Shown here one piece after another: positions 4,545 to 57,649 of a stretch of DNA of 64,000 nucleotides. A program made the translations under genes and the position numbers. The notes under the pieces are model-generated. The model was not told where the DNA came from, made no database searches, and worked only from the letters and a program-made list of their open reading frames with translations. The stretch is taken from assembly GCA_045545295.1 (NCBI GenBank), contig JAZQAO010000054.1:20826-84825 (forward strand). The letters run 5' to 3'. The stretch's first letter is position 1. The number at the start of each line of letters is the position of its first letter. Source of the stretch: Clostridia bacterium. GTDB lineage: Bacteria; Bacillota; Clostridia; UMGS1883.

Positions 4545-4728
4545 AAAAAAGAAGCGTGCCGCTTCACCCATGTCGCGTCCCAACAACATTCAATTTTCCA
4601 ATTGTTGCTCGCGATTGAATTACGCAAATTCCTATACGGTAAAAAAGAAGCGTGCCGCTTCACCCACGTCGCGCACGTACAAAGTGCAAACACAGTTTCA
4701 CGCGTACTAATTTACGCAAATTCCTATA
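4545..4728 (+). repeat. Two tandem copies of a ~93-bp modular interspersed repeat (left module AAAAAAGAAGCGTGCCGCTTCACCCAYGTCGCR, variable core, right module TTACGCAAATTCCTATACGGT)
   Basis: Direct sequence comparison with 7 other loci in this window; core subtypes A and B. Confidence 0.85.
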
Positions 4729-26830: not shown

Positions 26831-26923
26831 AAAAAGAAGCGTGCCGCTTCACCCACGTCGCACCCTCACAGGAGTGCAAACAAAGTTTCCTGCGTCATAA
26901 TTTGACGCAAATTCCTATACGGT
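26831..26923 (+). repeat. Single copy of the modular interspersed repeat (core subtype C)
   Basis: aaaaaagaagcgtgccgcttcacccacgtcgca...ttgacgcaaattcctatacggt. Confidence 0.85.
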
Positions 26924-34920: not shown

Positions 34921-35108
34921 AAAAAAGAAGCGTGCCGCTTCACCCACGTCGCGTCCAAACTTAACTTAAAACCCACAAATATTGCTCGCGATAAAAAACG
35001 CAATTTCCTATACGATAAAAAAGAAGCTTGCCGCTTCACCCATGTCGCGCACCTGCAAATGTCGAACATAGCTTCACGCGAATAAAATTACGCAAATTCC
35101 TATAAGGT
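34921..35108 (+). repeat. Two tandem copies of the modular interspersed repeat (core subtypes A and D)
   Basis: Direct sequence identity of left and right modules with other loci. Confidence 0.85.
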
Positions 35109-36419: not shown

Positions 36420-36518
36420 AATCCGCATCAAAAAATATTTTTATCAAAAGACAATTTATTTACTATTGATTTTATATTTCTTATATGCTATTATAACCGA
36501 CAGAAAGGATGTTTTTAA

Positions 36519-36782
36519 ATGAAAATAAAAGACGGTTACATATTGAGCTCAGTCGCAGGGAAAAACATTGTCGTTTCCGTTGGCAGCGATGCGGATTTTT
36601 CCGGAATGCTGACACTTAATGAAACAGGAATGTTTTTCTGGAAGCTGCTTGAAAACGAAACAACAAAAGAAGAAATGATTTCAGCAGTTATGGCAGAGTA
36701 TGATGTTGACGAAAAAACAGTTTCCGAAGACATAGAAGAGTTTTTGACAAAAATAAGAGAAAAAGGAATACTGGAGGAATAA
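36519..36782 (+). CDS. PqqD-like small protein (RiPP-recognition-element type)
   Basis: 87 aa; LTLNETGMFFWKLLENETTKEEMISAVMAEYDVDEKTVSEDIEEFLTKIREKGIL matches PqqD pattern (LN.tg..iW.l.dG..t.eei...l...y.v......dv..fl..L...gl). Confidence 0.5.
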   Translation: MKIKDGYILSSVAGKNIVVSVGSDADFSGMLTLNETGMFFWKLLENETTKEEMISAVMAEYDVDEKTVSEDIEEFLTKIREKGILEE

Positions 36783-36785
36783 ATT

Positions 36786-38018
36786 ATGGAAATAAAGCAA
36801 GAGATAAGACTGCTTGCGCAAGAGGTAGAAAAAGAGATTGCTCCCCTCCTTGACAAAGTTGACAAAACAGCAATGGCAAATCAGGAGAAGGTGCTTGATG
36901 CATTTATAAAGCACCGTGTAGGTGAAAATTGTCTCTATCCCTCAACCGGATACGGTTACGGAGATGTTGGTCGGGAAACACTTGAAAGCATTTATGCCGA
37001 TGTTTTCGGTGCGGAGGACGCAATTGTAAGGCACAACATTGTAAACGGTACACACTGTCTTGCAATTTCTCTGTTTTCTGTTCTGAGACCCGGTGACACC
37101 CTTCTTGCCGGTGCAGGAAAACCATACGATACTCTTGAGGAAGTTATTGGCATTTCAGGAAATGCAGGAGGAAATCTTAAAGAATTCGGCATCGGATATA
37201 AGCAGGTTGACCTGATAGATGGAAAAATTGATCTTGATGGAATAAAAAAAGCCCTTACTCCCGATGTAAGGGCAGTTATTCTTCAGCGTTCAAAAGGATA
37301 TGACTGGAGGGATACCTTAAGCAGCCAGGCACTTGGAGAAGCTATTTCTTTTGTTCACGGGATAAATCCCGATATTTGCTGTATTGTTGATAACTGCTAC
37401 GGGGAATTTGCAGAAACAACCGAACCAACACAGTTCGGAGCAGATATGGTAGTTGGCTCGCTTATAAAAAACACCGGTGGCGGAATTGCTCAGACAGGAG
37501 GTTATATTGCAGGCAAAGCAAAATATATTGAGCTTGCCGCAAACAGAACTACTGCACCGGGAATAGGCAAAGAATGTGGCGCAACAATCGGGCAGAACAG
37601 ATTTATGTATCAGGGGCTTTTTATGGCTCCTCACACCGTTGCACAGGCGATTAAAAGTGCAATTTTCGCCGGAGCGCTTCTTTCTAAAATGGGCTACGAG
37701 GTTAATCCTCTCCCCGACGGGAATCATTATGATATAATACAGGCCATTAAATTTAACGACAAGGATAAGCTTATAAGGTTTATTCAGGGCATTCAGAAAG
37801 CATCTCCCATTGACAGCTATGCTATTCCGATGCCTTGGGATATGCCGGGTTATCAGCATCAGGTAATTATGGCGGCAGGTACGTTTGTATCCGGCGCGAG
37901 CATTGAATTAAGTGCAGATGCACCGATTAAGGAGCCGTATGTAGGATTTTTACAGGGCGGACTTACTTATGAAAGCGCAAAGCTTGCTATTATGTACGCC
38001 GCAGGCGAAATACTATAA
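36786..38018 (+). CDS. YnbB / aluminium-resistance family PLP-dependent enzyme (Met-gamma-lyase-like fold)
   Basis: PSTGYGYGDVGRETLESIYADVFGAE, GKPYDTLEE, RSKGY, VDNCYGEF, SLIKNTGGGIAQTGGYI motifs; start 4 nt after the pqqD-like stop, with its RBS inside that gene. Confidence 0.75.
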   Translation: MEIKQEIRLLAQEVEKEIAPLLDKVDKTAMANQEKVLDAFIKHRVGENCLYPSTGYGYGDVGRETLESIYADVFGAEDAIVRHNIVNGTHCLAISLFSVLRPGDTLLAGAGKPYDTLEEVIGISGNAGGNLKEFGIGYKQVDLIDGKIDLDGIKKALTPDVRAVILQRSKGYDWRDTLSSQALGEAISFVHGINPDICCIVDNCYGEFAETTEPTQFGADMVVGSLIKNTGGGIAQTGGYIAGKAKYIELAANRTTAPGIGKECGATIGQNRFMYQGLFMAPHTVAQAIKSAIFAGALLSKMGYEVNPLPDGNHYDIIQAIKFNDKDKLIRFIQGIQKASPIDSYAIPMPWDMPGYQHQVIMAAGTFVSGASIELSADAPIKEPYVGFLQGGLTYESAKLAIMYAAGEIL

Positions 38019-38032
38019 ATCATAAATTAAAA

Positions 38033-38078
38033 AGTTGGAGTAAAGAGCCGAGTTCTCTACTCCAACTTTTTAATTTAA
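38033..38078. terminator. Bidirectional hairpin terminator between convergent genes
   Basis: aaaaagttggagta ...15 nt... tactccaactttttaa; 10-bp perfect stem with A/T runs both sides. Confidence 0.65.
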
Positions 38079-38293: not shown

Positions 38294-38384
38294 AATAAAT
38301 CTCCTTTTTCTCAACAAATTGCTCTGTTATTAAGCATATTAACACATTTTTCTCCTTTTGTCAAAACTTTACTTTCATACAATT

Positions 38385-38476
38385 AAAAAAGAAGCGTGCC
38401 GCTTCACCCATGTCGCGCACCTGCAAATGTCGAACATAGCTTCACGCGAATAAAATTACGCAATTTCCTATACGGT
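38385..38476 (+). repeat. Single copy of the modular interspersed repeat (core subtype D)
   Basis: Identical core to the second copy at 35017..35108. Confidence 0.85.
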
Positions 38477-38511
38477 AAAAAAAGGTTGATGCGATGCATC
38501 AACCTTTTTTG
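38477..38511 (-). terminator. Intrinsic terminator overlapping the stop codon of the GRE activase gene
   Basis: aaaaaaaggttgatgc gat gcatcaacctttttt; 9-bp stem plus T6. Confidence 0.7.
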
Positions 38512-39314
38512 TCGGAAATAATATTTTTTAATTCTTCAATTTTATCTTTGTCGGGAATATTGAAACTTTGAACTTTCCTGCCAAGTGCAGTATATTTATG
38601 CTCTCCCATAGCATGATATGGAAGGAGTTCAACTTCTTCCGGATATCCGTTTGTGTCAAAAAATGCTTTGATTTTTTTCAGTTCTTCTTCGCTGTCATTT
38701 ACATCGGGGATAACGGGAATTCTTACCCGTACACAAGCAGCGGATTTCAGGAGCTTTGCAAGATTTTCAAGAATAAGAGTATTCGAAACACCCGTATATT
38801 CTTTATGAATTTCGTTGTTCACAGCCTTGATATCATACAAAAACAAATCGGTGTAGGGGCGTATCTCTTCAAAGTTGTCCCACGGCACACATCCTGCGGT
38901 ATCAACTGCGGTATGTATGCCGTTTTCTTTGCATTTTTTTAAAATTTCAAAAAGAAAATCTATCTGCAGCATACATTCTCCGCCCGAAAATGTTACGCCA
39001 CCGCCCGAGGTTTCGTAAAAGGTTTTATCTTTTATAATTTCATTAAAAACTTCATTAACTGTATATTCTTTTCCGCAGATTTCCTTTGCGTCGTTAAAGC
39101 AGAAAAAGTTTTCGTTATCTGCCGTAATATCCTTGCATTTTCCGCAATTTGTGCACTTATTTTTATAAAACAAGATTTCTTTTTTGAAATTCTGACTTTC
39201 TGGATTATGACACCATTTACATCTTAAATTACAACCCTTGAAAAACACCGTTGTACGTATTCCGGGACCGTCAACATATGAATTTCTTTCTATGTCAAAT
39301 ATTGTTGCTTTCAT
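38499..39314 (-). CDS. Glycyl-radical-enzyme activating enzyme (PflA family radical SAM)
   Basis: DGPGIRTTVFFKGCNLRCKWCHNPES (CxxxCxxC) and GGVTFSGGEC motifs; extra CTNCGKC auxiliary-cluster segment; GGAGG RBS. Confidence 0.85.
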   Translation of the reverse strand: MKATIFDIERNSYVDGPGIRTTVFFKGCNLRCKWCHNPESQNFKKEILFYKNKCTNCGKCKDITADNENFFCFNDAKEICGKEYTVNEVFNEIIKDKTFYETSGGGVTFSGGECMLQIDFLFEILKKCKENGIHTAVDTAGCVPWDNFEEIRPYTDLFLYDIKAVNNEIHKEYTGVSNTLILENLAKLLKSAACVRVRIPVIPDVNDSEEELKKIKAFFDTNGYPEEVELLPYHAMGEHKYTALGRKVQSFNIPDKDKIEELKNIISDKKG

Positions 39315-39369
39315 TGTTTACCTCCTGAATTGCACACTTCAACATTCCAAAATATCGCCCAAAACCGTT

Positions 39370-40125
39370 TTAAATTGTTGCACAATTATCTCCTCCGTCT
39401 GCCACAACCGTGTGCCCGCAGATAATTTCACCGAAATCACTCATAAGGTAAAAAGCAAGCTCTGCAATTTCGTCAGGTCTTATAAAACGTTCTATTGCGT
39501 GACGTTCGTATTTTGCATTTATGTCGTTTGCATAATGTGAAATCATTGGCGTAAATGTTGCCCCGGGGGCTATGCCGTTGATTATAATGCCATTATGCCC
39601 GTATCGTTTTCCAAATGCTCTTGTCCACTTGATAGTTGCTTCCTTGGAAGCTCCGTAACTGCCGACTATATCCATACATACCGCATTTGAAGCGATGTTT
39701 AAAATGTTGCCCCGCACATTGTTTGCAAGCATATAATCAATTTCGTTACGCATAAGGAAAAATGCTGCTTTGAAATTTATATCAGTCAGAGTGTCCCACT
39801 CATCCTCTGTAATATCCCACGGCTCATAGCCTCTGCCCGTGTACTGGCTTGTTCCCAAAGCTGCGGCATTTACAAATCCGTTAAGTCCCCCTAAAGTTTC
39901 AGCTACTTCATCAAATAATGTAATATGGTCGTTTACCTTTGTAATATCAAAAGCCTTGTAATACAAATTTCCGCTGTTTATTTCATTTGCGGCATCTTTT
40001 AATTTTTTCTCATTTCTTCCGGCAATAAGCACCTTTGCGCCGGCGTCGCAAAACCTTTTTGCGATAGCCTTTCCGATACCGCTGCCACCGCCGAAAACCA
40101 GTATTTTATTATTTCTCAGATTCAT
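39370..40125 (-). CDS. Short-chain dehydrogenase/reductase (SDR)
   Basis: GGGSGIGKAIA Rossmann motif; YGASK catalytic-type motif; 4-bp overlap with upstream GRE gene. Confidence 0.85.
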   Translation of the reverse strand: MNLRNNKILVFGGGSGIGKAIAKRFCDAGAKVLIAGRNEKKLKDAANEINSGNLYYKAFDITKVNDHITLFDEVAETLGGLNGFVNAAALGTSQYTGRGYEPWDITEDEWDTLTDINFKAAFFLMRNEIDYMLANNVRGNILNIASNAVCMDIVGSYGASKEATIKWTRAFGKRYGHNGIIINGIAPGATFTPMISHYANDINAKYERHAIERFIRPDEIAELAFYLMSDFGEIICGHTVVADGGDNCATI

Positions 40126-42242
40126 TTTTGAGTAGTCCTTTCGATAATATTATCCTGTAATGCTTCATTAAGCTTGACAAAGTAGTCAGAAAATCCCGAC
40201 ACTCGAACACGCAGGTTTTTATAATCTTCGGGGGTCTTCTTAGCGTTAATCAAATCTTCTTTTGAGACGTAGGTAAGCTGAAAATGCACGCCACCGTTTT
40301 TGAAATAGGTTTCAAGCATATCAACAGTTTTTTCAAAGTTGTCATCGTTTTTAACAAGCTGTTCGTCGATAGTGATGTTAGTAACCGTTGATCCGCATCC
40401 GATAGCATTGGGGTCAATCTTGGCAATGGAATTTAAAAGTGCAGTCAGCCCATTTCTGTCCTTGCCTTCGCCTTGCCCGAGACCGAATTTGAGGGCGTCA
40501 CCTTTCTGTCTTCCGTCGGGGGTGGCTTCTGTTTTCTCGCCAAACCACTTATAGTGCTGATGGTATCCCGTAAGGTCGCCCACAAGCCAGTGGTAGCCGA
40601 AGAGGTTGGTTTTATCCTTTAAGAATTCATACAAGCTCTGATATAGCTTCTGTGCTACATAGTTAGACCTGTCGGTGTCGTTCCCGAAAAAGTCACCTTT
40701 TTTCAGAATTACGGCACGGAGCTCTTCGTATCCCTGCCAGTTGTTCTTAAGTGCATCAATAAGCTCTGCCATTGTGATAATTTTCTCGTCAAATACAAAC
40801 TGCTTTACGATTATGAGCGAATCAATAACATTTGCAATTCCCATATACATGGGGGAGGCAATCACAACATCGCCTGCACCTTGTGTAAGACTTTTTGCTT
40901 TTTCAATGCACCCCTGAAAGAAAATGCTTGAAAGGTAGTTTATATCCTTTGCGCGAATACTGTTATATTTGTTGTCGTATTCATAAGCAATTTCAAGGTC
41001 GGAAAACATTTCTTCAAGAAATGCCCGGTAAAATTCGTCGAAGCTTTTTGTGCTTATTATTTTTTCTGATTTTCTGTGAAAGAGTGTTTCGATACTGCGG
41101 ACAAAATTTATTTTTGAGTTACTACCTGCGATTGCACCAAGAAAAGCCGGCTCATTACAACCTACGGTTGTGTAGCCTACAGCCTTTTCAAATGGGAAAC
41201 CACAGATTTCGGTATAGCACTTCATTCGCTTTTCATCATTCTGGAAAGCAATTCGCTTATGTGGGTCCTTTCTTTCACAGTCAAGTGCAAAACGGAATAC
41301 TTCTCTTGGAGTTTTCTTTGTCCAGCGAAGCGTTACTTGCGGAATCCAGGTGGGAAGCTCAAGAAGGCTCTCAAGTATAAGCTCCGATACTTCGTTGAAT
41401 CCGTCTTCGCCGTTTTCTAAATATCCGCCTATGCAAAAGTGTGACTCGCCACCTCTTGTAAAATTAGGGTTATCTATATGTGTTGCCGCCTGAAGCATAA
41501 GGAAAAGCTCCTGCAGATATTCTTTTGCTTCTTCTTTTGTAAGAGTACCATTTTTAATATCAGTTTCATAAAACGGGGTAAGGTATCTGTCAAGTGTTCC
41601 TACACTGTCGGGGTCTGCGGAAAAACATACGTAAATTGTAAGAACTGCCTCGTAAAAAGAGGAGGGCTTATTTTCAGGAACCCTGAGAAGTGCTTCGGAC
41701 AATTTTGTGAGGTTTTGTCTGTGCTTTTCGTTGCTTGTAATTTTCGATAATTCCAGAGCTTTGTCGGAGCATTTGTGTGCCCATTTAATAAATGTGTTTG
41801 CAACATTTTTTAAAGCATTCAAAAACTCTATTTCTTCGGGAATTGTATGCTTTTTCAATGAATCTTCAATCTCGTCAATTATTCCTGAAAGCCCTTTTTC
41901 AAGAACTTTCTTATAATCTGCAGTTGCATGCTGCCATTCAAAGGTAGAAAGGTTGTCAATGGGCTTTTTGTAAAATTCTTCGGCAAGAATCTGGAAGGAT
42001 TTATGTCCTATACGGTGGAAAGCATCGCCAACAACTGTGTTGTCGCAGTTGAAAAAACCCGTCATAGCGGAATATTCTGTCAAAACAGGCTCCTGATTTA
42101 ATATAAATTCGCAAAGCCTTTTTGACTCTCGCTGTTGTTTTGAAAGAAATAAATCCTCTCTGTCAAATCTCGTTTCTGTGGTGTGTGCATACATCTTTCC
42201 TTCAAGTGTCAATTTGGCAAGTGCCGTGATTCTTTCGTTCAT
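40122..42242 (-). CDS. Glycyl radical enzyme, PFL fold, Cys-x-Glu (eliminase-type) active-site loop, substrate unknown; unusually short (706 aa)
   Basis: C-terminal glycyl radical motif RVRVSGFSDYF, ATPDGRQKGDAL and GGVHFQLTYVS segments as in PFL/DhaB; active-site loop VGCNEPA; AAAGGCGG RBS before ATG 42242. Confidence 0.8.
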   Translation of the reverse strand: MNERITALAKLTLEGKMYAHTTETRFDREDLFLSKQQRESKRLCEFILNQEPVLTEYSAMTGFFNCDNTVVGDAFHRIGHKSFQILAEEFYKKPIDNLSTFEWQHATADYKKVLEKGLSGIIDEIEDSLKKHTIPEEIEFLNALKNVANTFIKWAHKCSDKALELSKITSNEKHRQNLTKLSEALLRVPENKPSSFYEAVLTIYVCFSADPDSVGTLDRYLTPFYETDIKNGTLTKEEAKEYLQELFLMLQAATHIDNPNFTRGGESHFCIGGYLENGEDGFNEVSELILESLLELPTWIPQVTLRWTKKTPREVFRFALDCERKDPHKRIAFQNDEKRMKCYTEICGFPFEKAVGYTTVGCNEPAFLGAIAGSNSKINFVRSIETLFHRKSEKIISTKSFDEFYRAFLEEMFSDLEIAYEYDNKYNSIRAKDINYLSSIFFQGCIEKAKSLTQGAGDVVIASPMYMGIANVIDSLIIVKQFVFDEKIITMAELIDALKNNWQGYEELRAVILKKGDFFGNDTDRSNYVAQKLYQSLYEFLKDKTNLFGYHWLVGDLTGYHQHYKWFGEKTEATPDGRQKGDALKFGLGQGEGKDRNGLTALLNSIAKIDPNAIGCGSTVTNITIDEQLVKNDDNFEKTVDMLETYFKNGGVHFQLTYVSKEDLINAKKTPEDYKNLRVRVSGFSDYFVKLNEALQDNIIERTTQK

Positions 42243-42377
42243 ATTAATACCGCCTTTCACCATAAGTATATCTGTATTATCGGAAATGTAAATACACAAA
42301 ACACTCCGTTTATACTTTTCGCTACAAAATTATTGACTTAATACTATGAATATGGCATTATAAGAGAAGGTGATAGT

Positions 42378-43160
42378 ATGAATAATAACTTTATCATAAC
42401 AGAAATCGGCAGAGCCATACTTGTGGGTAAAGATGAATATCCTGCCGCGAAAGTAACCTTCGGCGGAAAATTGAAATATAACGAACTTATATATCATTTA
42501 AGCGGAAAATCAACAGTTCATTTCGATGGAAAAATTCTTGAAACAGAGGAAGATACGATTCGCTTTTTGCCCAAAGGAGAAAATGGAGAATATATTGTTG
42601 AAAAAAAAGCAGCGGGAGAGTGTATAGATGTATTTTTCGATACTGATATTCCCGTGTCGGAAGAAGCTTTTGTAGTGAAAGTCGCCCAAAGTGCAACTGT
42701 TTCAAGCTTGTTCAAAAAACTTTTTTCAGTATGGGTTGCTAAAAACGATGGCTATTATTATGAATGTATATCACTGCTTTACAGAATTCTTGCCGAAATG
42801 CAAAAGCAAAACTACATTCCACCCAATCAGTACGACACAATAAAACCTGCGATTGAGTATATAATGGAAAATTTCCTTAAAAGCAAAATTTCAGTTCCTT
42901 TTTTAGCTGAAAAATGTGGTATAAGTGAGGCGTACCTTAAAAAATTGTTTGTCAAAAAGTTCGGAATGTCACCCCTTCGGTATATTATTCGATTGAAAAT
43001 AAATCACGCCTGCGATCTTCTGCATTCAAATCAGTATTCAGTAACGCAGGTTGCAGAGCTTTGCGGATATGACAATGTATATTTTTTCAGCCGCCAGTTT
43101 AAAGAATATGTCGGTATCACCCCCACAGAGTTTGTTGAAAAATATAAGTCTTCAAAATAA
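42378..43160 (+). CDS. AraC-family transcriptional regulator, divergent from the GRE operon
   Basis: C-terminal AraC HTH (NQYSVTQVAELCGYDNVYFFSRQFKEYVGITPTEF). Confidence 0.8.
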   Translation: MNNNFIITEIGRAILVGKDEYPAAKVTFGGKLKYNELIYHLSGKSTVHFDGKILETEEDTIRFLPKGENGEYIVEKKAAGECIDVFFDTDIPVSEEAFVVKVAQSATVSSLFKKLFSVWVAKNDGYYYECISLLYRILAEMQKQNYIPPNQYDTIKPAIEYIMENFLKSKISVPFLAEKCGISEAYLKKLFVKKFGMSPLRYIIRLKINHACDLLHSNQYSVTQVAELCGYDNVYFFSRQFKEYVGITPTEFVEKYKSSK

Positions 43161-43248
43161 AAAGCCCGCCGCTTCACCCATGTCGCACCCTCGCAGGAGT
43201 GCAAACAAAGTTTCCTGCGTCATAATTTGACGCAAATTACTATACAGA
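43159..43248 (+). repeat. Degenerate copy of the modular interspersed repeat (core subtype C), then hairpin terminator 43253..43276
   Basis: aaaaagcccgccgcttcacccatgtcgcaccctcgcaggagtgcaaacaaagtttcctgcgtcataatttgacgcaaattactatacag. Confidence 0.7.
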
Positions 43249-46890: not shown

Positions 46891-47075
46891 TAATTTAGAG
46901 GAATTTGCGTAAATTAGTACGCGTGAAACTGTGTTTGCACTTTGTACGTGCGTGACGTGGGTGAAGCGGCACGCTTCTTTTTTAATTTATAGGAATTTGC
47001 GTAAATTAGTACGCGTGAAACTGTGTTTGTACTTTGTACGTGCGCGACGTGGGTGAAGCGGCACGCTTCTTTTTT
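46891..47075 (-). repeat. Two tandem copies of the modular interspersed repeat in reverse orientation (core subtype B), abutting the stop of the transglycosylase gene
   Basis: ...gacgtgggtgaagcggcacgcttctttttt repeated twice. Confidence 0.85.
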
Positions 47076-51387: not shown

Positions 51388-51575
51388 AAAAAAGAAGCGT
51401 GCCGCTTCACCCATGTCGCACCCTCGCAGGAGTGCAAACAAAGTTTCCTGCGTCATAATTTGACGCAAATTCCTATACGGTAAAAAAGAAGCGTGCCGCT
51501 TCACCCATGTCGCACCATCACAGAAGTACATACACGGTTTCCTGCGACATAATTTTGCGCAAATTCCTATACGGC
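51388..51575 (+). repeat. Two tandem copies of the modular interspersed repeat (core subtypes C and E)
   Basis: Direct comparison; subtype E carries compensatory stem atgtcgca/tgcgacat. Confidence 0.85.
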
Positions 51576-53829: not shown

Positions 53830-55200
53830 TTAATAACCGAAATGCTTTTCAGTTTCAGCTACTGCTTCTTCAATGATTGCAAGACCCTTAAGCGCAGCTT
53901 CGTCGTCGAGAATCATCGGAGGTGACATACGAAGGATGTGACCTGACGGTACCCAAGCAAGACCCTTTTCGAAAGCCTTCTGGTAAATCATTGTACCAGC
54001 TTCTGCGAAAGGTTCCTTAGTATCGCGATCCTTAACGATTTCCATAGCCTGAAGACATCCGATAGCACGAACATCACCGATAATGGGATGAGCAGCCTTC
54101 ATCTCTTCCATCTTCTTAAGCATGATTTCACCAAGGTGAGCAGAACGCTCGTTAAGCTGTTCTTCTTCGATAACCTTGATTGATTCAAGAGCTGCAGCAC
54201 AAGCCATGGGGTTACCACCGTAGCTTGAAGATGCAGAAATCTTTTCAATTGCGGGAGCAAGGTCTTCTGATACTGCAAGTGCTGTAACAGGGAAACCGTT
54301 ACCGAAGCCCTTACCAAGTGTTGTGATATCTGCAGTTACATTCCAGTGATCCATAGCAAGGTACTTACCTGTTCTAGCCATACAGTTAAGAACTTCGTCT
54401 GCGAAGAGAAGGATGCCGCGCTTGTCGCAAAGAGCACGAAGTGCGGGAAGGAAATCTGCAGGAGGAATGATTGTACCGCCCCAACCCTGAATAGGCTCGA
54501 GAACGATTGCAGCAACATTCTTACCGCCTGAAGCACACTGATTATCAAGTGTACCTTCAATCATTCTGATGTAGGGTGATGAATCCTTCCAAGCTTCTTC
54601 AGGAGTTCTGCCAAAGAAGTCACGGTAAGGATTAGGTCTGGGAACGAGCATAAATCCGGGAGCTCTCATATGTGTGTCGGGGCCAACAACAGCAAGTGAG
54701 TTAGCACCATAAGTCTTACCGTGGAAGTCTCTCCAGAAAGAGATGAATTCCTGCTTGCCCGTAGCAGCTCTTGCACAACGAAGACCTGCTTCAACAGCAG
54801 TCGTACCTGAATCGTAGAACTGGAAACCACCGAAACGGCCGCCTGTGATTTCGTGAAGCTTTTCAACAAGCTCCATCTTTACTTTTGTAGTAAAGTCGTG
54901 GCAGTTCATAAGGTTCTTAGCGTGGAAAGCAACAGCTTCACTGATCTTGGGATGACAGTGACCGAGACCTGTTACATAAATACCTGATGAGAAGTCGAGG
55001 TATGTATTTCCGTCAACGTCTTTAAGTGTGTAACCGTAACCTGATTCAAATGTTACGGGGAAAAGTTTAACCTGGCTTGAGTAACCCTTCATGTACTTAG
55101 CACATCTCTCGTGGTACTCGATTGATTTGGGACCGGGAACTGTTTCCGATACCATGTTGGGAACTGTTGTAAGATCAACGCTTGCCCAATTCTTACTCAT
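53830..55200 (-). CDS. Class-III (omega) PLP-dependent aminotransferase
   Basis: GIYVTGLGHCHPKI and ADEVLNCMARTGKYLAMDH...TLGKGFGNGFP motifs. Confidence 0.85.
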   Translation of the reverse strand: MSKNWASVDLTTVPNMVSETVPGPKSIEYHERCAKYMKGYSSQVKLFPVTFESGYGYTLKDVDGNTYLDFSSGIYVTGLGHCHPKISEAVAFHAKNLMNCHDFTTKVKMELVEKLHEITGGRFGGFQFYDSGTTAVEAGLRCARAATGKQEFISFWRDFHGKTYGANSLAVVGPDTHMRAPGFMLVPRPNPYRDFFGRTPEEAWKDSSPYIRMIEGTLDNQCASGGKNVAAIVLEPIQGWGGTIIPPADFLPALRALCDKRGILLFADEVLNCMARTGKYLAMDHWNVTADITTLGKGFGNGFPVTALAVSEDLAPAIEKISASSSYGGNPMACAAALESIKVIEEEQLNERSAHLGEIMLKKMEEMKAAHPIIGDVRAIGCLQAMEIVKDRDTKEPFAEAGTMIYQKAFEKGLAWVPSGHILRMSPPMILDDEAALKGLAIIEEAVAETEKHFGY

Positions 55201-55539: not shown

Positions 55540-55552
55540 ATGTAAAAACAGA

Positions 55553-55775
55553 TTTGGTAGAGGTGCGGAATCTATCAGTACGATATGCAACTCGGGACAT
55601 TCCTGCATATCTGAAAGGAGCTTCCGCCGAAGTTTTGGGAGGCAATGTCCGTTTCCCGGGCTGGGCTGCAGTACAACATATTGCAGACTGTCACGTAAGT
55701 GGAGCGCTATCGTATATTTATGGCACTTTTTGTGTCTTTTTGCGGTACAGGCTCTGCCTGTACCATTTTTGTTTA
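55553..55775 (+). promoter_or_regulatory. Lysine riboswitch (L-box) with terminator-type expression platform
   Basis: GGTAGAGGTGCGG, CTGAAAGGAGCTTCCGCCGAAG, ACTGTCA, GGAGCGCTATCG segments match conserved L-box elements (as in B. subtilis lysC leader); terminator ggtacagg-ctctg-cctgtacc + atttttgttt at 55745-55775. Confidence 0.65.
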
Positions 55776-55795: not shown

Positions 55796-57418
55796 ATGAA
55801 ATTTTTAAACAAAAAGAACATTCTCTCCTTCTTCACATTTATCCTTATTCTTGCAACAGCAATCATTGCTTTTGCAGAAGGTGAAGAAGCAGAACACGTA
55901 AGCAAATTTGCTTCAACATTCTGGGCACTTGTTCCCCCGGTTGTAGCAATCGTGCTTGCGCTCATCACTAAAGAAGTGTACTCTTCCCTTTTTGTAGGTA
56001 TTCTTTCAGGCGCACTTCTTTTCGCAAACTTTGATCTGGAGATTGCAATGAACCACATGCTCGTGGATGGATTCATTGCATCACTTTCCGACAGCTGGAA
56101 CGTAGGTATCCTTGTATTTCTCGTTATCCTCGGTGCTATCGTTGCTCTTATGAATAAGGCAGGCGGCAGCGCAGCGTTCGGAAGATGGGCTTCCACAAGA
56201 ATCAAGACAAAGTTTGGTGCACAGTGCGCAACAATCGCACTTGGCGTACTTATCTTCATCGACGACTACTTCAACTGTCTCACAGTTGGTTCGGTAATGC
56301 GTCCTGTTACAGACAAGTTCAAGATTTCAAGAGCAAAGCTTGCTTACCTTATTGATGCTACAGCAGCTCCTGTTTGTATCATCGCTCCCATTTCTTCATG
56401 GGCTGCAGCAGTTGCAGGTTTTGCAGAGGGTTCAGGAATGAACGGTCTTGAGCTTTTCATCAGAGCTATCCCCTATAACTTCTACGCTCTTCTCACAATT
56501 GTAATGATGTTTACTCTTGCGATTATGAAGTTTGAGTTTGGCCCCATGAAAAAGCATGAAGCTAACGCTGAAAACGGTGACCTCTTCTCTTCAGATGATG
56601 CAGAAGTTTTCAAGGCTCTTGAAAATAATAACCCCGATTCCAAGGGCAAGGTTATTGATCTTGTTCTCCCTGTTATTGTACTTATCATCACTTGCGTAAT
56701 CGGTATGATTTACACAGGCGGTTTCTTCAGCGGTGAAAGCTTTGTTGACGCTTTTGCAAACAGCGACGCTTCCGTTGGTCTTGTAATCGGTTCTTCAATC
56801 GCACTTGTATTCACAATTATTTATATGTTCGCTCGCAGAGTGCTTACGTTTAAAGAATGTATGGGCTGCGTTCCAGAAGGTTTCAAAGCTATGGTACCTG
56901 CAATAATGATTCTTACATTTGCATGGACTCTTAAGGCTATGACAGACTCTCTCGGTGCTGCAGATTACATTGCAGGTCTTGTTCAGGGTTCTGCTGAAGG
57001 TTTTGTTAACTTCCTTCCCGCAATTGTATTCCTTGTTGCTTGCGTACTTGCATTTGCATCAGGTACTTCATGGGGTACATTCGGTATCCTTATTCCCATT
57101 GTTGTAGCAGCATTTGGTGGCTTCAGCAGCGAAATCACAATCATTGCAGTTTCTGCTTGTATGGCAGGTGCAGTTTGCGGCGACCACTGCTCACCCATTT
57201 CAGACACAACAATTATGGCATCTGCGGGAAGCCAGTCAAACCATATTAACCACGTTAACACACAGCTTCCCTATGCTATATTGGTTGCTGCAATTTCTTT
57301 TGTATGTTATCTTATCGCAGCGTTTATACAGAATCCGTTCATTCTTCTTCCCATCGGCATTGTTATTACAATAGTAACACTTTTTGTAATAAAGAAGATA
57401 ACAACAAAGAACGCGTAA
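55796..57418 (+). CDS. NhaC-family transporter, probably a lysine transporter given the L-box leader
   Basis: 540 aa, ~12 TM; NhaC-family architecture; AGGAGGG RBS. Confidence 0.8.
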   Translation: MKFLNKKNILSFFTFILILATAIIAFAEGEEAEHVSKFASTFWALVPPVVAIVLALITKEVYSSLFVGILSGALLFANFDLEIAMNHMLVDGFIASLSDSWNVGILVFLVILGAIVALMNKAGGSAAFGRWASTRIKTKFGAQCATIALGVLIFIDDYFNCLTVGSVMRPVTDKFKISRAKLAYLIDATAAPVCIIAPISSWAAAVAGFAEGSGMNGLELFIRAIPYNFYALLTIVMMFTLAIMKFEFGPMKKHEANAENGDLFSSDDAEVFKALENNNPDSKGKVIDLVLPVIVLIITCVIGMIYTGGFFSGESFVDAFANSDASVGLVIGSSIALVFTIIYMFARRVLTFKECMGCVPEGFKAMVPAIMILTFAWTLKAMTDSLGAADYIAGLVQGSAEGFVNFLPAIVFLVACVLAFASGTSWGTFGILIPIVVAAFGGFSSEITIIAVSACMAGAVCGDHCSPISDTTIMASAGSQSNHINHVNTQLPYAILVAAISFVCYLIAAFIQNPFILLPIGIVITIVTLFVIKKITTKNA

Positions 57419-57459: not shown

Positions 57460-57649
57460 ACCGTATAGGAATTTGCGCAAAATTATGTCGCAGGAAACCG
57501 TGTATGCACTTCTGTGATGGTGCGACATGGGTGAAGCGGCACGCTTCCTTTTTAATTTATAGAAAATTGCGTTTTTTATCGCGAGCAATATTTGTGGGTT
57601 TTAAGTTAAGTTTGGACGCGACGTGGGTGAAGCGGCACGCTTCTTTTTT
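57460..57649 (-). repeat. Two tandem copies of the modular interspersed repeat, reverse orientation (core subtypes E and A)
   Basis: accgtataggaatttgcgcaaaattatgtcgcaggaaaccgtgtatgcacttctgtgatggtgcgacatgggtgaagcggcacgcttcc... and second copy. Confidence 0.85.

Follow-up and report, generated by a model that had tools for sequence, protein, structure and literature searches.

A lasso-B1-like RiPP recognition element coupled to ynbB in gut Clostridia: probable remnant of a peptide-maturation cassette

A gene for a small, stand-alone RiPP recognition element (RRE) lies immediately upstream of a gene for a PLP enzyme of the YnbB family in the Clostridia DNA considered here (the window, meaning the whole 64,000-nt stretch that was analysed). 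The question that this locus raises is whether the two proteins work together. An RRE and an unexpected enzyme in a tight operon can mimic a new biosynthetic partnership, and we think that the decay of a larger cassette explains the RRE-ynbB arrangement better.

The 87-aa protein matches PF05402 (PqqD) over profile positions 3-67 of 67, at 67.5 bits against a cut-off of 23.4 (E 1.3e-18). This match, set beforehand as a test that could refute the first-pass annotation, bears out the assignment to the PqqD/RRE type. The AF2 model of the protein (pLDDT 91.2) has the order beta-beta-beta-alpha-alpha-alpha, with strands at 7-12, 15-20 and 30-33 and helices at 35-45, 50-60 and 65-81, that is, the three-stranded sheet followed by three helices of a winged helix-turn-helix fold. 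The top Foldseek match is TbiB1 with its leader peptide bound (5v1u, TM 0.80-0.84, 30% identity), and a profile of the RRE finds TbiB1 in the PDB at E 2.6e-10; TM is 0.76 against both TfuB1 and PqqD. TbiB1 and TfuB1, the lasso B1 proteins of split-B systems, are the best PDB matches in both structure and sequence, and like the window RRE they are stand-alone PqqD-like proteins of about 85-90 aa with a beta3-alpha3 winged helix.

The 410-aa product of the downstream gene matches PF06838 (Met_gamma_lyase) at 589 bits over profile positions 4-402 of 405, and matches the YnbB-family structures in the PDB (3GWP/3I16, 3HVY, 3HT4, 3FD0 and 3JZL) at 438-457 bits, with 453 bits for 3HVY, described as 'YNBB B. 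subtilis ortholog'. It contains the segment GSLIKNTGG, and the Lys of SLIKN is presumably the PLP-binding (Schiff-base) residue, by analogy with PLP enzymes of Cys/Met metabolism. Alignment shows SLIKN to be kept across all four arrangement groups described below, and reveals no insertion, deletion or motif specific to RRE-linked YnbB when compared with YnbB that has no RRE neighbour. The YnbB assignment made from the sequence alone stands, while the accompanying description of a poorly understood aluminium-resistance family is outdated: B. subtilis YnbB is strictly required for the 5-aminopentanolylation of EF-P Lys32, a function known from that species only, where mass spectrometry and genetic work revealed it (PMC5885033). 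In B. subtilis the 5-aminopentanol group is believed to be built up on EF-P itself, and YnbB has been proposed to form the first intermediate (PMC5885033). The window enzyme most likely does the usual job of its family, in B. subtilis a needed step in this modification. There, too, ynbB comes second in an operon of two genes, ynbAB (PMC5885033), but the gene upstream of ynbB in this EF-P pathway (YnbB, GsaB, YmfI) is ynbA and not an RRE gene.

The two genes, which lie at the positions first given for them, are packed closely (Table 1). The RRE gene ends in TAA (36780-36782), and a 3-nt spacer (ATT) separates this stop codon from the ynbB ATG, which is in the same frame. The GGAGG Shine-Dalgarno sequence of ynbB is 8 nt from that ATG, and its position within the RRE gene confirms the translational coupling that had been proposed. 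Read-through into a fused protein across TAA ATT ATG was considered and rejected because the frame relation does not hold in a related locus (L001). A promoter-like site in the 99-nt gap 3' of a DUF1810 gene and a hairpin terminator bracket the pair as a unit, which may also be transcribed by read-through from the upstream PHP/DUF1810 genes. The hairpin is the shared end of this unit and of a convergent 80-aa membrane ORF.

Table 1. Coordinates and supporting evidence for the RRE-ynbB unit and its signals (positions within the window).
Feature	Position	Strand	Basis
Candidate sigma-70-like promoter, TTGATT-17 nt-TATTAT, TG ahead of -10	36466..36494	+	Consensus scan, prediction
87-aa stand-alone RRE (PqqD family, lasso-B1-like winged helix)	36519..36782	+	PF05402, AF2, Foldseek
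GGAGG Shine-Dalgarno of ynbB, within the final codons of the RRE gene (Leu-Glu-Glu)	36773..36777	+	Sequence
410-aa YnbB-family PLP enzyme	36786..38018	+	PF06838, 589 bits
Hairpin terminator, 20-bp stem, T-runs on either side	38027..38073		Sequence; strong hairpin

It had been remarked that no RiPP maturase adjoins the RRE gene and that no precursor-peptide ORF lies nearby, and a wider search of the window agrees on both counts. Among the window proteins scanned, which represent most of its ORFs, there is no lasso cyclase, B2, YcaO or SPASM gene, and no ScmC or S26 gene (each sought with a purpose-built HMM) or second RRE was found in the window. The one radical-SAM gene found among these proteins (38499-39314) lies 480 nt further downstream and on the other strand. 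It was examined as a partner for the RRE and rejected, as its product is a glycyl-radical-enzyme activase (324 bits to TIGR02494, cut-off 174) paired with the glycyl radical enzyme at 40122-42299. No precursor ORF was detected in the window by conservation, leader HMM or regex. The HMM for the YxxPxΦ leader gave no meaningful match in the window (best E = 18) nor in any YnbB-linked locus, with which the regex agreed, and no conserved small intergenic ORF is present across 29 YnbB-linked loci.

The resemblance of the RRE to lasso B1 proteins extends to genomic context. A leader-peptidase-type gene lies directly 3' of the RRE gene in lasso systems and in relatives of the window RRE. Lasso leaders carry the motif YxxPxL, which resembles the YxxPx[L/F/I] of precursors beside cassette RREs (see below). 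Genes for HPr-kinase-like proteins, nucleotidyltransferases and ABC proteins accompany lasso clusters and RRE cassettes alike (PMC7533575). That said, the peptidase is a transglutaminase-like B2 in lasso clusters but an S26-type Ser/His peptidase in the RRE relatives, the annotated loci of those relatives showed no lasso cyclase, and the combination of B2 with an Asn-synthetase-like cyclase is absent from those loci as well as from the scanned window proteins. The lasso B1 models NF033536 / NF033530 score below cut-off for the RRE (40 bits against 80, 36.6 against 70); lasso_PqqD_Bac, the highest-scoring NCBIfam model, misses its membership threshold (40 bits against 80).

Two other PqqD-containing systems can be compared. 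PqqD of PQQ biosynthesis shares PF05402 and the fold with the RRE (5sxy ranked seventh in the fold search), but the PQQ-pathway model TIGR03859 scores the RRE at 23.7 bits, under its cut-off of 46; there is no PqqE-type radical-SAM gene in the window and nothing resembling pqqA/B/C among the window proteins scanned. The second is the SynChlorMet system of NCBIfam (ScmC, the PqqD-like ScmD, and the radical SAM/SPASM proteins ScmE/F). Relatives of the RRE adjoin ScmC-family proteins (PF27840), some of their loci hold a radical-SAM protein that matches NCBIfam radical SAM/SPASM maturase models, and the ScmD model TIGR04248 matches the window RRE weakly. These scores are far under the equivalog cut-offs (25 against 100, 30 against 125 and 89 against 400), and the cassettes of the RRE clade differ in adding an S26 peptidase and an ABC exporter. 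None of these partners, exporter and peptidase included, occurs beside the RRE in the window.

What, then, is the usual setting of this RRE? A metagenome scan covered the best 80 of at least 503 confirmed RRE matches, so that rarer arrangements may be missed. Within these 80, the order ScmC-RRE-S26(-ABC) recurs in about 50 loci, about 10 loci include a radical-SAM gene and four include DUF1846, and an RRE beside YnbB occurs in only two loci, both of them the closest relatives. The contexts away from ynbB include ScmC-RRE-DUF1846, ScmC-RRE-S26-ABC and RRE-rSAM-precursors-ScmC-S26-ABC; members of the same clade are also found beside a DUF1846 gene and, as solitary genes, beside the pst operon or elsewhere (L164/L179). 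In 10 of the loci fetched, short precursor-like ORFs, with about seven distinct sequences among them, lie beside a radical-SAM or ScmC gene. They begin with a leader of the form MKKxYxxPxΦ(E/D), where Φ is L, F or I, and those in radical-SAM cassettes contain Cys.

This cassette of ScmC-like protein, RRE, S26 peptidase and ABC exporter, with optional radical-SAM maturase and YxxPxΦ-leader precursors, appears to be undescribed in the literature searched, and it may define a peptide-maturation and export system that is common in gut Clostridia. ScmC and SynChlorMet returned only unrelated acronyms, and no publication found combines any two of PqqD, YnbB, aluminium-resistance protein, DUF1846 and PF06838. 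The literature role of DUF1846/UPF0371 is limited to a hemin-binding protein in S. pneumoniae.

The history of the pairing itself emerges from a scan of species-level genomes for YnbB, again limited to the best 80 of 207 confirmed matches, so that rarer arrangements may be missed. Among these 80 genomes, each with one ynbB, an RRE gene lies upstream of ynbB in 25, and the RRE-ynbB pairing, whose presence in related genomes had been posed as a check, thus passed it. All 22 genomes in this set with a YnbB at least 78% identical have the pairing. The arrangements divide into 16 RRE-YnbB (L001 is one such context), nine RRE-S26-YnbB (as in L002-4, L008-10 and L095), nine S26-YnbB and 46 with neither gene, in which the upstream genes are variable. 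The RRE-bearing loci are flanked upstream by DUF2232, an AI-2E transporter or DUF1810. Of the nine S26-YnbB loci, seven were checked to lie directly behind an FtsH gene, an eighth follows a C-terminal fragment of FtsH where its contig ends, and the contig of the ninth is cut inside S26. YnbB orthologues outside the gut Clostridia lineage have unrelated genes upstream.

The S26-like gene inserted between RRE and ynbB shows the invariant motifs G-x-S-M-x-P and L-H-R, and its copies in the different contexts are homologous. In neighbour-joining trees, built without support values, the peptidase-containing arrangements are basal in the YnbB tree, peptidase-less ones arise in about three places, and the YnbB-linked RREs form one clade nested among cassette RREs. 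Read from these sequence comparisons, the pairing appears to have arisen once, in one gut Clostridia lineage, with about three losses of the S26-type peptidase gene from between its neighbours; a sister clade has kept S26-YnbB without the RRE. Where relatives retain the peptidase gene, the GGAGG at the end of the RRE gene serves that gene; of the 17 peptidase-less junctions tabulated, 16 use a GGAGG at this same position for ynbB. The next start codon comes 0-12 nt further on. Deletion of the peptidase gene left ynbB on the ribosome-binding site of the peptidase, and the coupling of RRE and ynbB is the result of this deletion.

The RRE has not decayed in the process. Each of the 40 copies examined is an intact ORF of 86-87 aa, and the RRE remains intact and constrained in all of the approximately 17 species that followed peptidase loss. 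Its dN/dS is about 0.14 among 29 unique orthologues and 0.138 after peptidase loss, compared with 0.15-0.18 for the S26 peptidase and 0.05 for YnbB, values that are approximate, with synonymous sites near saturation (dS about 1.4). Purifying selection of this kind indicates that the RRE is functional. Its conserved residues make up the hydrophobic core and positions in beta3, alpha1 and alpha3, and are common to YnbB-linked and cassette RREs. A functional shift of the groove after capture by ynbB was looked for and rejected, the changes being conservative only (L/I, F/L, M/L, S/P). Constraint on the last two residues (E-E/D) is specific to YnbB-linked copies and matches the GGAGG codons.

The reading that we favour, and that we regard as somewhat more probable than not, is that the RRE is a working remnant of a peptide-maturation cassette and that its coupling to ynbB is inherited architecture and not a new enzyme partnership. 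The usual home cassette of the RRE clade comprises a ScmC-like P-loop (HPr-kinase-related) protein, the RRE, the S26-type Ser/His peptidase and an ABC exporter. A single ancestor within a gut Clostridia (Oscillospiraceae-like) lineage would have fixed an RRE-peptidase pair immediately ahead of its one housekeeping ynbB; in the sub-lineage of the window, the peptidase gene would later have been deleted cleanly, the ynbB ATG taking the place of the peptidase ATG. The translational coupling would be inherited, since this deletion would have put the ynbB ATG at its present distance from GGAGG. Because the RRE agrees with cassette RREs in its core and groove residues, it probably still binds a YxxPxΦ-type peptide segment. 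Most likely it would serve some peptide or enzyme whose gene lies at another place in the genome, and its co-expression with ynbB would be a matter of history. A gene that inherits the internal ribosome-binding site of a cassette in this way is a caution for genome mining by RRE neighbourhood.

One consideration argues against the remnant view. If RRE and S26 acted purely as a pair on a distant peptide, losing one should free the other from selection, yet the RRE stayed constrained without S26, and S26 stayed in the sister clade without the RRE. The only constant neighbour of both is ynbB, so that a YnbB-related role stays open, and what is left is an orphan RRE under selection in about 25 species (among the best 80 of 207 YnbB matches), beside the sole ynbB found in each. 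The RRE could, as first suggested from the sequence, feed YnbB as a dedicated substrate-recruiting subunit, presenting a peptide or protein segment to the PLP enzyme. The substrate would then be either a RiPP-like peptide from another locus, which YnbB would tailor, or the protein substrate of the EF-P pathway. The history of the pairing is no evidence for such feeding, and we consider it unlikely, but several observations speak for it: the 0-12 nt coupling holds in 25 of 25 RRE-bearing genomes (best 80 of 207) across three upstream flanks, the crown clade never lost the RRE, against about three losses of the intervening peptidase, and purifying selection outlasted those losses. Assembly of 5-aminopentanol on EF-P itself also makes a protein-binding adaptor not absurd (PMC5885033). 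Against such a subunit stand the single origin of the pairing, without convergent recurrence, the lack of any distinguishing feature in RRE-linked YnbB, the sister clade with S26-YnbB alone, and the capture of the same RRE clade beside the unrelated DUF1846 and alone beside the pst operon. The groove is the same as in cassette RREs. YnbB orthologues elsewhere, including the one studied experimentally, do without an RRE, and none is known in the B. subtilis EF-P pathway. PLP chemistry needs a free amine, and a leader-bound internal peptide offers no obvious one.

Less likely again is a role outside both RiPP biosynthesis and YnbB, such as that of a small winged-helix regulator or of a chaperone for another protein, to which the position of the gene would be irrelevant. 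The solitary clade members fit it, as does the persistence of RRE and peptidase each without the other, but it has no positive evidence, and the groove and core residues are those of RREs beside precursors.

More doubtful still is domestication of the RRE as a YnbB accessory subunit that holds a short linear segment for EF-P modification. A candidate for this segment is the aromatic/His-V-K-P stretch just ahead of the modified Lys32 loop of EF-P (loop peptide FQHVKPGKGAAF). In Firmicutes this stretch reads FQHVKPGKG and loosely resembles the Y-x-K-P leader motif of RRE-clade precursors, in three or four residues only, a resemblance that may well be chance. If true, it would take RREs for the first time beyond peptide natural-product biosynthesis, into the modification of a translation factor.

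Least probable of all is that the RRE ORF is a dead relic, kept open because its translation and terminal GGAGG are needed for ynbB expression: the internal ribosome-binding site, the 0-12 nt stop-start spacing and the YnbB-specific final E-E/D fit this, but the full-length copies, the low dN/dS across the whole gene, conserved positions well beyond the 3' end and a confidently predicted RRE fold do not.

Two observations concern the wider window. The class-III aminotransferase at 53830-55200 was considered as a GsaB and rejected; it resembles acetylornithine aminotransferase, and its best 25 NCBIfam matches include no model for a GsaB-type glutamate-semialdehyde aminomutase. A search of the whole window with Rfam at the gathering threshold gave no cis-regulatory RNA near the operon; the only match in the window is a lysine riboswitch at 55550-55717.

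The first-pass annotation described the 87-aa protein as a PqqD-type RiPP recognition element (RRE), and this assignment holds. The protein passes the PqqD model PF05402 at 67.5 bits against a cut-off of 23.4, and its nearest NCBIfam models are those of lasso-peptide PqqD chaperones, every curated cut-off of which it misses. An AlphaFold2 model made with 43 homologues as input is confident (pLDDT 91.2), and the predicted fold has the three-strand, three-helix topology of an RRE. Of the PDB structures, the model matches TbiB1 best (TM 0.80-0.84, 30% identity), a lasso-peptide B1 RRE whose crystal structure includes its own leader peptide; TfuB1 and PqqD come next. Searching the PDB with the sequence profile of the family returned lasso B1/PqqD chaperones only.

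Translational coupling of ynbB to the RRE gene, with a ribosome-binding site inside the latter, had also been proposed, and the junction bears this out: the two ORFs are 3 nt apart, and a GGAGG within the final RRE codons lies 8 nt ahead of the ynbB ATG. Predicted signals bracket the pair on both sides, and no Rfam family matched in the region. The two genes share a reading frame, with only TAA ATT between them (36780-36788); read-through of the RRE stop codon would yield a fused RRE-YnbB protein. This frame relation is not kept in L001, a relative with the same gene order, which suggests that it is probably incidental.

Features of the window and of related loci (L-numbers denote fetched relatives)
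Feature	Position	Strand	Remarks
Promoter-like site	36466-36494		predicted; 5' of RRE + ynbB
RRE, 87 aa	36519-36782	+	PqqD family
GGAGG	36773-36777		final codons of RRE gene
ynbB, 410 aa	36786-38018	+	PLP enzyme
Terminator, 20-bp stem	38027-38073		predicted; 3' of RRE + ynbB
Glycyl-radical-enzyme activase	38499-39314	-	glycyl-radical-enzyme island, 38499-43160
Short-chain dehydrogenase	39370-40125	-	same island
Glycyl radical enzyme, short, 725 aa	40122-42299	-	same island
AraC regulator, divergent	42378-43160	+	same island
Repeat core	4552-4576, 4648-4672, 26837-26861, 34928-34952, 35024-35048, 38392-38416, 43162-43186, 51395-51419, 51489-51513
Repeat core	46952-46976, 47044-47068, 57522-57546, 57618-57642	-
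103-nt repeat copies, 96% identity	35016-35118, 38384-38486		flank PHP-DUF1810-RRE-ynbB-80-aa ORF block
Sel1-repeat protein, 374 aa	27800-28924	-	adjoins TIR_2/TPR protein
TIR_2 domain + TPR repeats protein, 819 aa	28942-31401	-
Lysine riboswitch RF00168	55550-55717	+	95.9 bits
Na+/H+ antiporter-family (NhaC-type) gene	55796-57418		riboswitch directly upstream
FtsH-S26-ynbB, no RRE	L041 2087-5608		sister lineage; also L039, L046, L051, L052, L055, L056
ScmC-RRE-DUF1846	L099 5256-7763		also L005-L007, L097, L098, L100, L133, L166, L180
Candidate precursors	L139 7435-7641; L165 2729-2914; L171 2707-2892; L150 3586-3666; L013 4070-4294 and 4276-4482; L132 4957-5100		shared leader
Candidate precursor	L140 1945-2154	-	same leader

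The 410-aa protein passes PF06838 (589 bits) and matches five solved YnbB-family structures at 438-457 bits, among them 3HVY, deposited as 'YNBB B. subtilis ortholog'. Its earlier description as one of a poorly understood aluminium-resistance family is outdated, since 5-aminopentanolylation of EF-P Lys32 in B. subtilis depends strictly on ynbB together with gsaB and ymfI; the added group is believed to be built directly on EF-P, and YnbB is proposed to move a fatty-acid-synthesis intermediate off acyl carrier protein, making the first intermediate (PMC5885033; also PMC11388002). In the literature searched, no paper connected PqqD-type proteins with YnbB.

No maturase partner adjoins the RRE gene, as the first-pass annotation had observed. 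The only radical-SAM gene nearby, 480 nt downstream of ynbB on the opposite strand, was rejected as a partner, being the glycyl-radical-enzyme activase beside its enzyme. No RRE partner was found among the window proteins scanned (all but a few smaller ORFs), which otherwise serve polysaccharide degradation, transport and housekeeping, and HMMs built in this analysis detected no second RRE, S26-like serine peptidase or ScmC (an HPr-kinase-related P-loop protein) in the 64-kb window.

A protein search with the RRE gave 66 homologues at 42-100% identity. At 75% identity YnbB directly follows the RRE; at 52-64% a 149-162-aa gene stands between them, under two upstream flanks (DUF2232/GdpP/L9/DnaB, or an AI-2E transporter); at 48-53% the order is ScmC-like protein, RRE, DUF1846; and at 45-47% it is either ScmC, RRE, 162-aa gene, ABC exporter, or RRE, radical SAM, two small ORFs, ScmC, 160-aa gene, ABC exporter. 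Copies of the 149-166-aa gene from all these contexts are homologous (29-38% identity), and their products match signal peptidase I and S24 models weakly but consistently. Their invariant motifs G-x-S-M-x-P, L-H-R and G-D-x-Q are, as we read them, the pattern of a Ser/His (ER/SipW-type) S26 peptidase. In a metagenome scan with an RRE alignment, the best 80 of at least 503 matches (42-63% identity) were classed by HMMs built here, those for S26, ScmC, ABC, radical SAM and DUF1846 resting on few sequences each: about 50 loci were ScmC-RRE-S26, mostly with an ABC exporter next, a radical-SAM gene adjoined the RRE in about 10, four were ScmC-RRE-DUF1846, a few held a solitary RRE, and only the two nearest to the window were RRE-S26-YnbB.

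In 10 of the fetched loci, short ORFs (about seven distinct sequences) adjoin a radical-SAM or ScmC gene and share an N-terminal leader, MKKxYxxPx[L/F/I][E/D], followed by Cys-containing cores in those beside radical-SAM genes. YxxPxL is the leader motif recognised by lasso B1 proteins, and the resemblance of the candidate precursors to it fits the structural match of the RRE to TbiB1. The cassettes annotated here differ from lasso clusters in showing no lasso cyclase or B2 protease. With its S26-type leader peptidase, the cassette of ScmC, RRE, S26 peptidase and ABC exporter has the look of a RiPP-like system, so far undescribed, in gut and rumen Clostridia. Several cassettes sit within polysaccharide-biosynthesis loci (L011, L013). 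Lasso clusters of rumen Firmicutes, too, are often accompanied by HPr-kinase-like, PqqD and nucleotidyltransferase genes (PMC7533575).

The same RRE clade has undergone a second capture, between a ScmC-like protein and DUF1846/UPF0371 (~500 aa, PRK13663). The three genes overlap or lie at most ~20 nt apart; in the RRE tree the loci group as a single clade, and their flanking contexts are of at least two kinds. Little is known of DUF1846, whose sole reported function is hemin binding in S. pneumoniae.

The pairing of RRE and YnbB recurs in related genomes, a check on which the first-pass annotation had made its reading depend. In a scan with a YnbB alignment, one genome per species, the best 80 of 207 matches lay in 80 different assemblies, all gut or rumen Clostridia MAGs; screened with HMMs built in this analysis, 25 have the RRE beside YnbB (16 RRE-YnbB, 9 RRE-S26-YnbB), 9 have S26-YnbB without RRE, and 46 have neither. 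Among these 80, the RRE accompanies YnbB in every one of the 22 genomes with 78% or more YnbB identity to the window, and neither RRE nor S26 occurs in any below ~62%, where the upstream gene is variable (oxaloacetate decarboxylase, pyruvate:ferredoxin oxidoreductase gamma subunit, M42 peptidase, ACT, NUDIX, racemase). A full FtsH gene lies directly upstream in 7 of the 9 S26-YnbB loci; L054 shows a C-terminal piece of FtsH at a contig end, and the L038 contig breaks off within the S26 gene. In this lineage the stop codon of FtsH adjoins or overlaps the start of the peptidase gene.

Trees were made by neighbour-joining, without support values. The YnbB tree places the S26-YnbB group as sister to the RRE-bearing group, within which RRE-S26-YnbB is basal and RRE-YnbB emerges in about three places; in the RRE tree, the YnbB-linked RREs all fall into a single clade that is nested among cassette RREs. 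These topologies indicate one origin of the association followed by vertical inheritance, with repeated loss of the peptidase gene thereafter. At RRE-S26-YnbB junctions the GGAGG in the final RRE codons serves the peptidase gene, and at RRE-YnbB junctions the ynbB ATG lies where the peptidase ATG had been (gap 0-12 nt), an anatomy indicating that the coupling was inherited from the RRE-peptidase pair. The junction sequence of one lineage (L020) differs from the others, consistent with a separate deletion of the peptidase gene.

All 40 RRE copies examined are intact (86-87 aa). Values of dN/dS, approximate because synonymous sites are close to saturation, are ~0.14 for the RRE (0.138 without the peptidase, 0.103 with it) and 0.046 for YnbB by pairwise Nei-Gojobori comparison, and 0.15-0.18 for the S26 peptidase with or without RRE, its catalytic motifs being kept; they point clearly to purifying selection on RRE and peptidase alike. 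In the FtsH-S26-ynbB lineage, the retained Ser/His motifs and a dN/dS of ~0.18 indicate that the peptidase persists without its usual RRE partner.

The best-supported account is that an RRE and S26-peptidase half-cassette was captured once ahead of a single housekeeping ynbB in a gut Clostridia lineage, that the sub-lineage of the window subsequently lost the peptidase gene by deletion, and that the RRE persists on its own, under constraint and co-expressed with ynbB. We lean slightly towards an RRE that has kept its binding to a YxxPxΦ-type peptide segment and serves partners whose genes lie elsewhere. The conserved core and beta3/alpha1/alpha3 residues are common to YnbB-linked and cassette RREs, and the differences are conservative. 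The main rival, in which the RRE has turned into an accessory of YnbB, draws on the lasting adjacency to ynbB and on the persistence of RRE and peptidase each alone beside it, but seems unlikely given the single origin of the association, a sister clade with peptidase and ynbB and no RRE, and the parallel capture beside the unrelated DUF1846. YnbB itself is also unaltered: its alignment showed no special insertion, deletion or motif in the RRE-linked clade, and the SLIKN lysine is retained. An adaptor role of the RRE in EF-P modification is taken as a lead only; Firmicute EF-P reads FQHVKPGKG around Lys32, a likeness of 3-4 residues to the Y-x-K-P leader of the RRE clade. That the RRE gene is a dead relic is very improbable, being contradicted by the selection data.

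An intergenic repeat is dispersed through the window; its 25-nt core (AAGCGTGCCGCTTCACCCATGTCGC) occurs 13 times, against 0 expected by chance. Copies are often paired, ~96 nt apart, and every one has a GC hairpin and T-run scored as a terminator; additional copies flank the glycyl-radical-enzyme island. The repeat had no Rfam match at the gathering threshold, looks like a REP- or MITE-like element, and may be the reason that synteny differs from the relatives. In these an HMA P-type ATPase comes straight after ynbB, an order that makes the island look like an insertion. Its glycyl radical enzyme reached ~280 bits with the sulfopropanediol and hydroxyproline dehydratase models, well short of the cut-offs of both, and was assigned to neither. 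The TIR_2/TPR protein and its Sel1-repeat neighbour may act together in TIR-based defence or signalling. The antiporter family that follows the lysine riboswitch is also found downstream of ynbB in three RRE-S26-YnbB relatives (L002, L008, L009).
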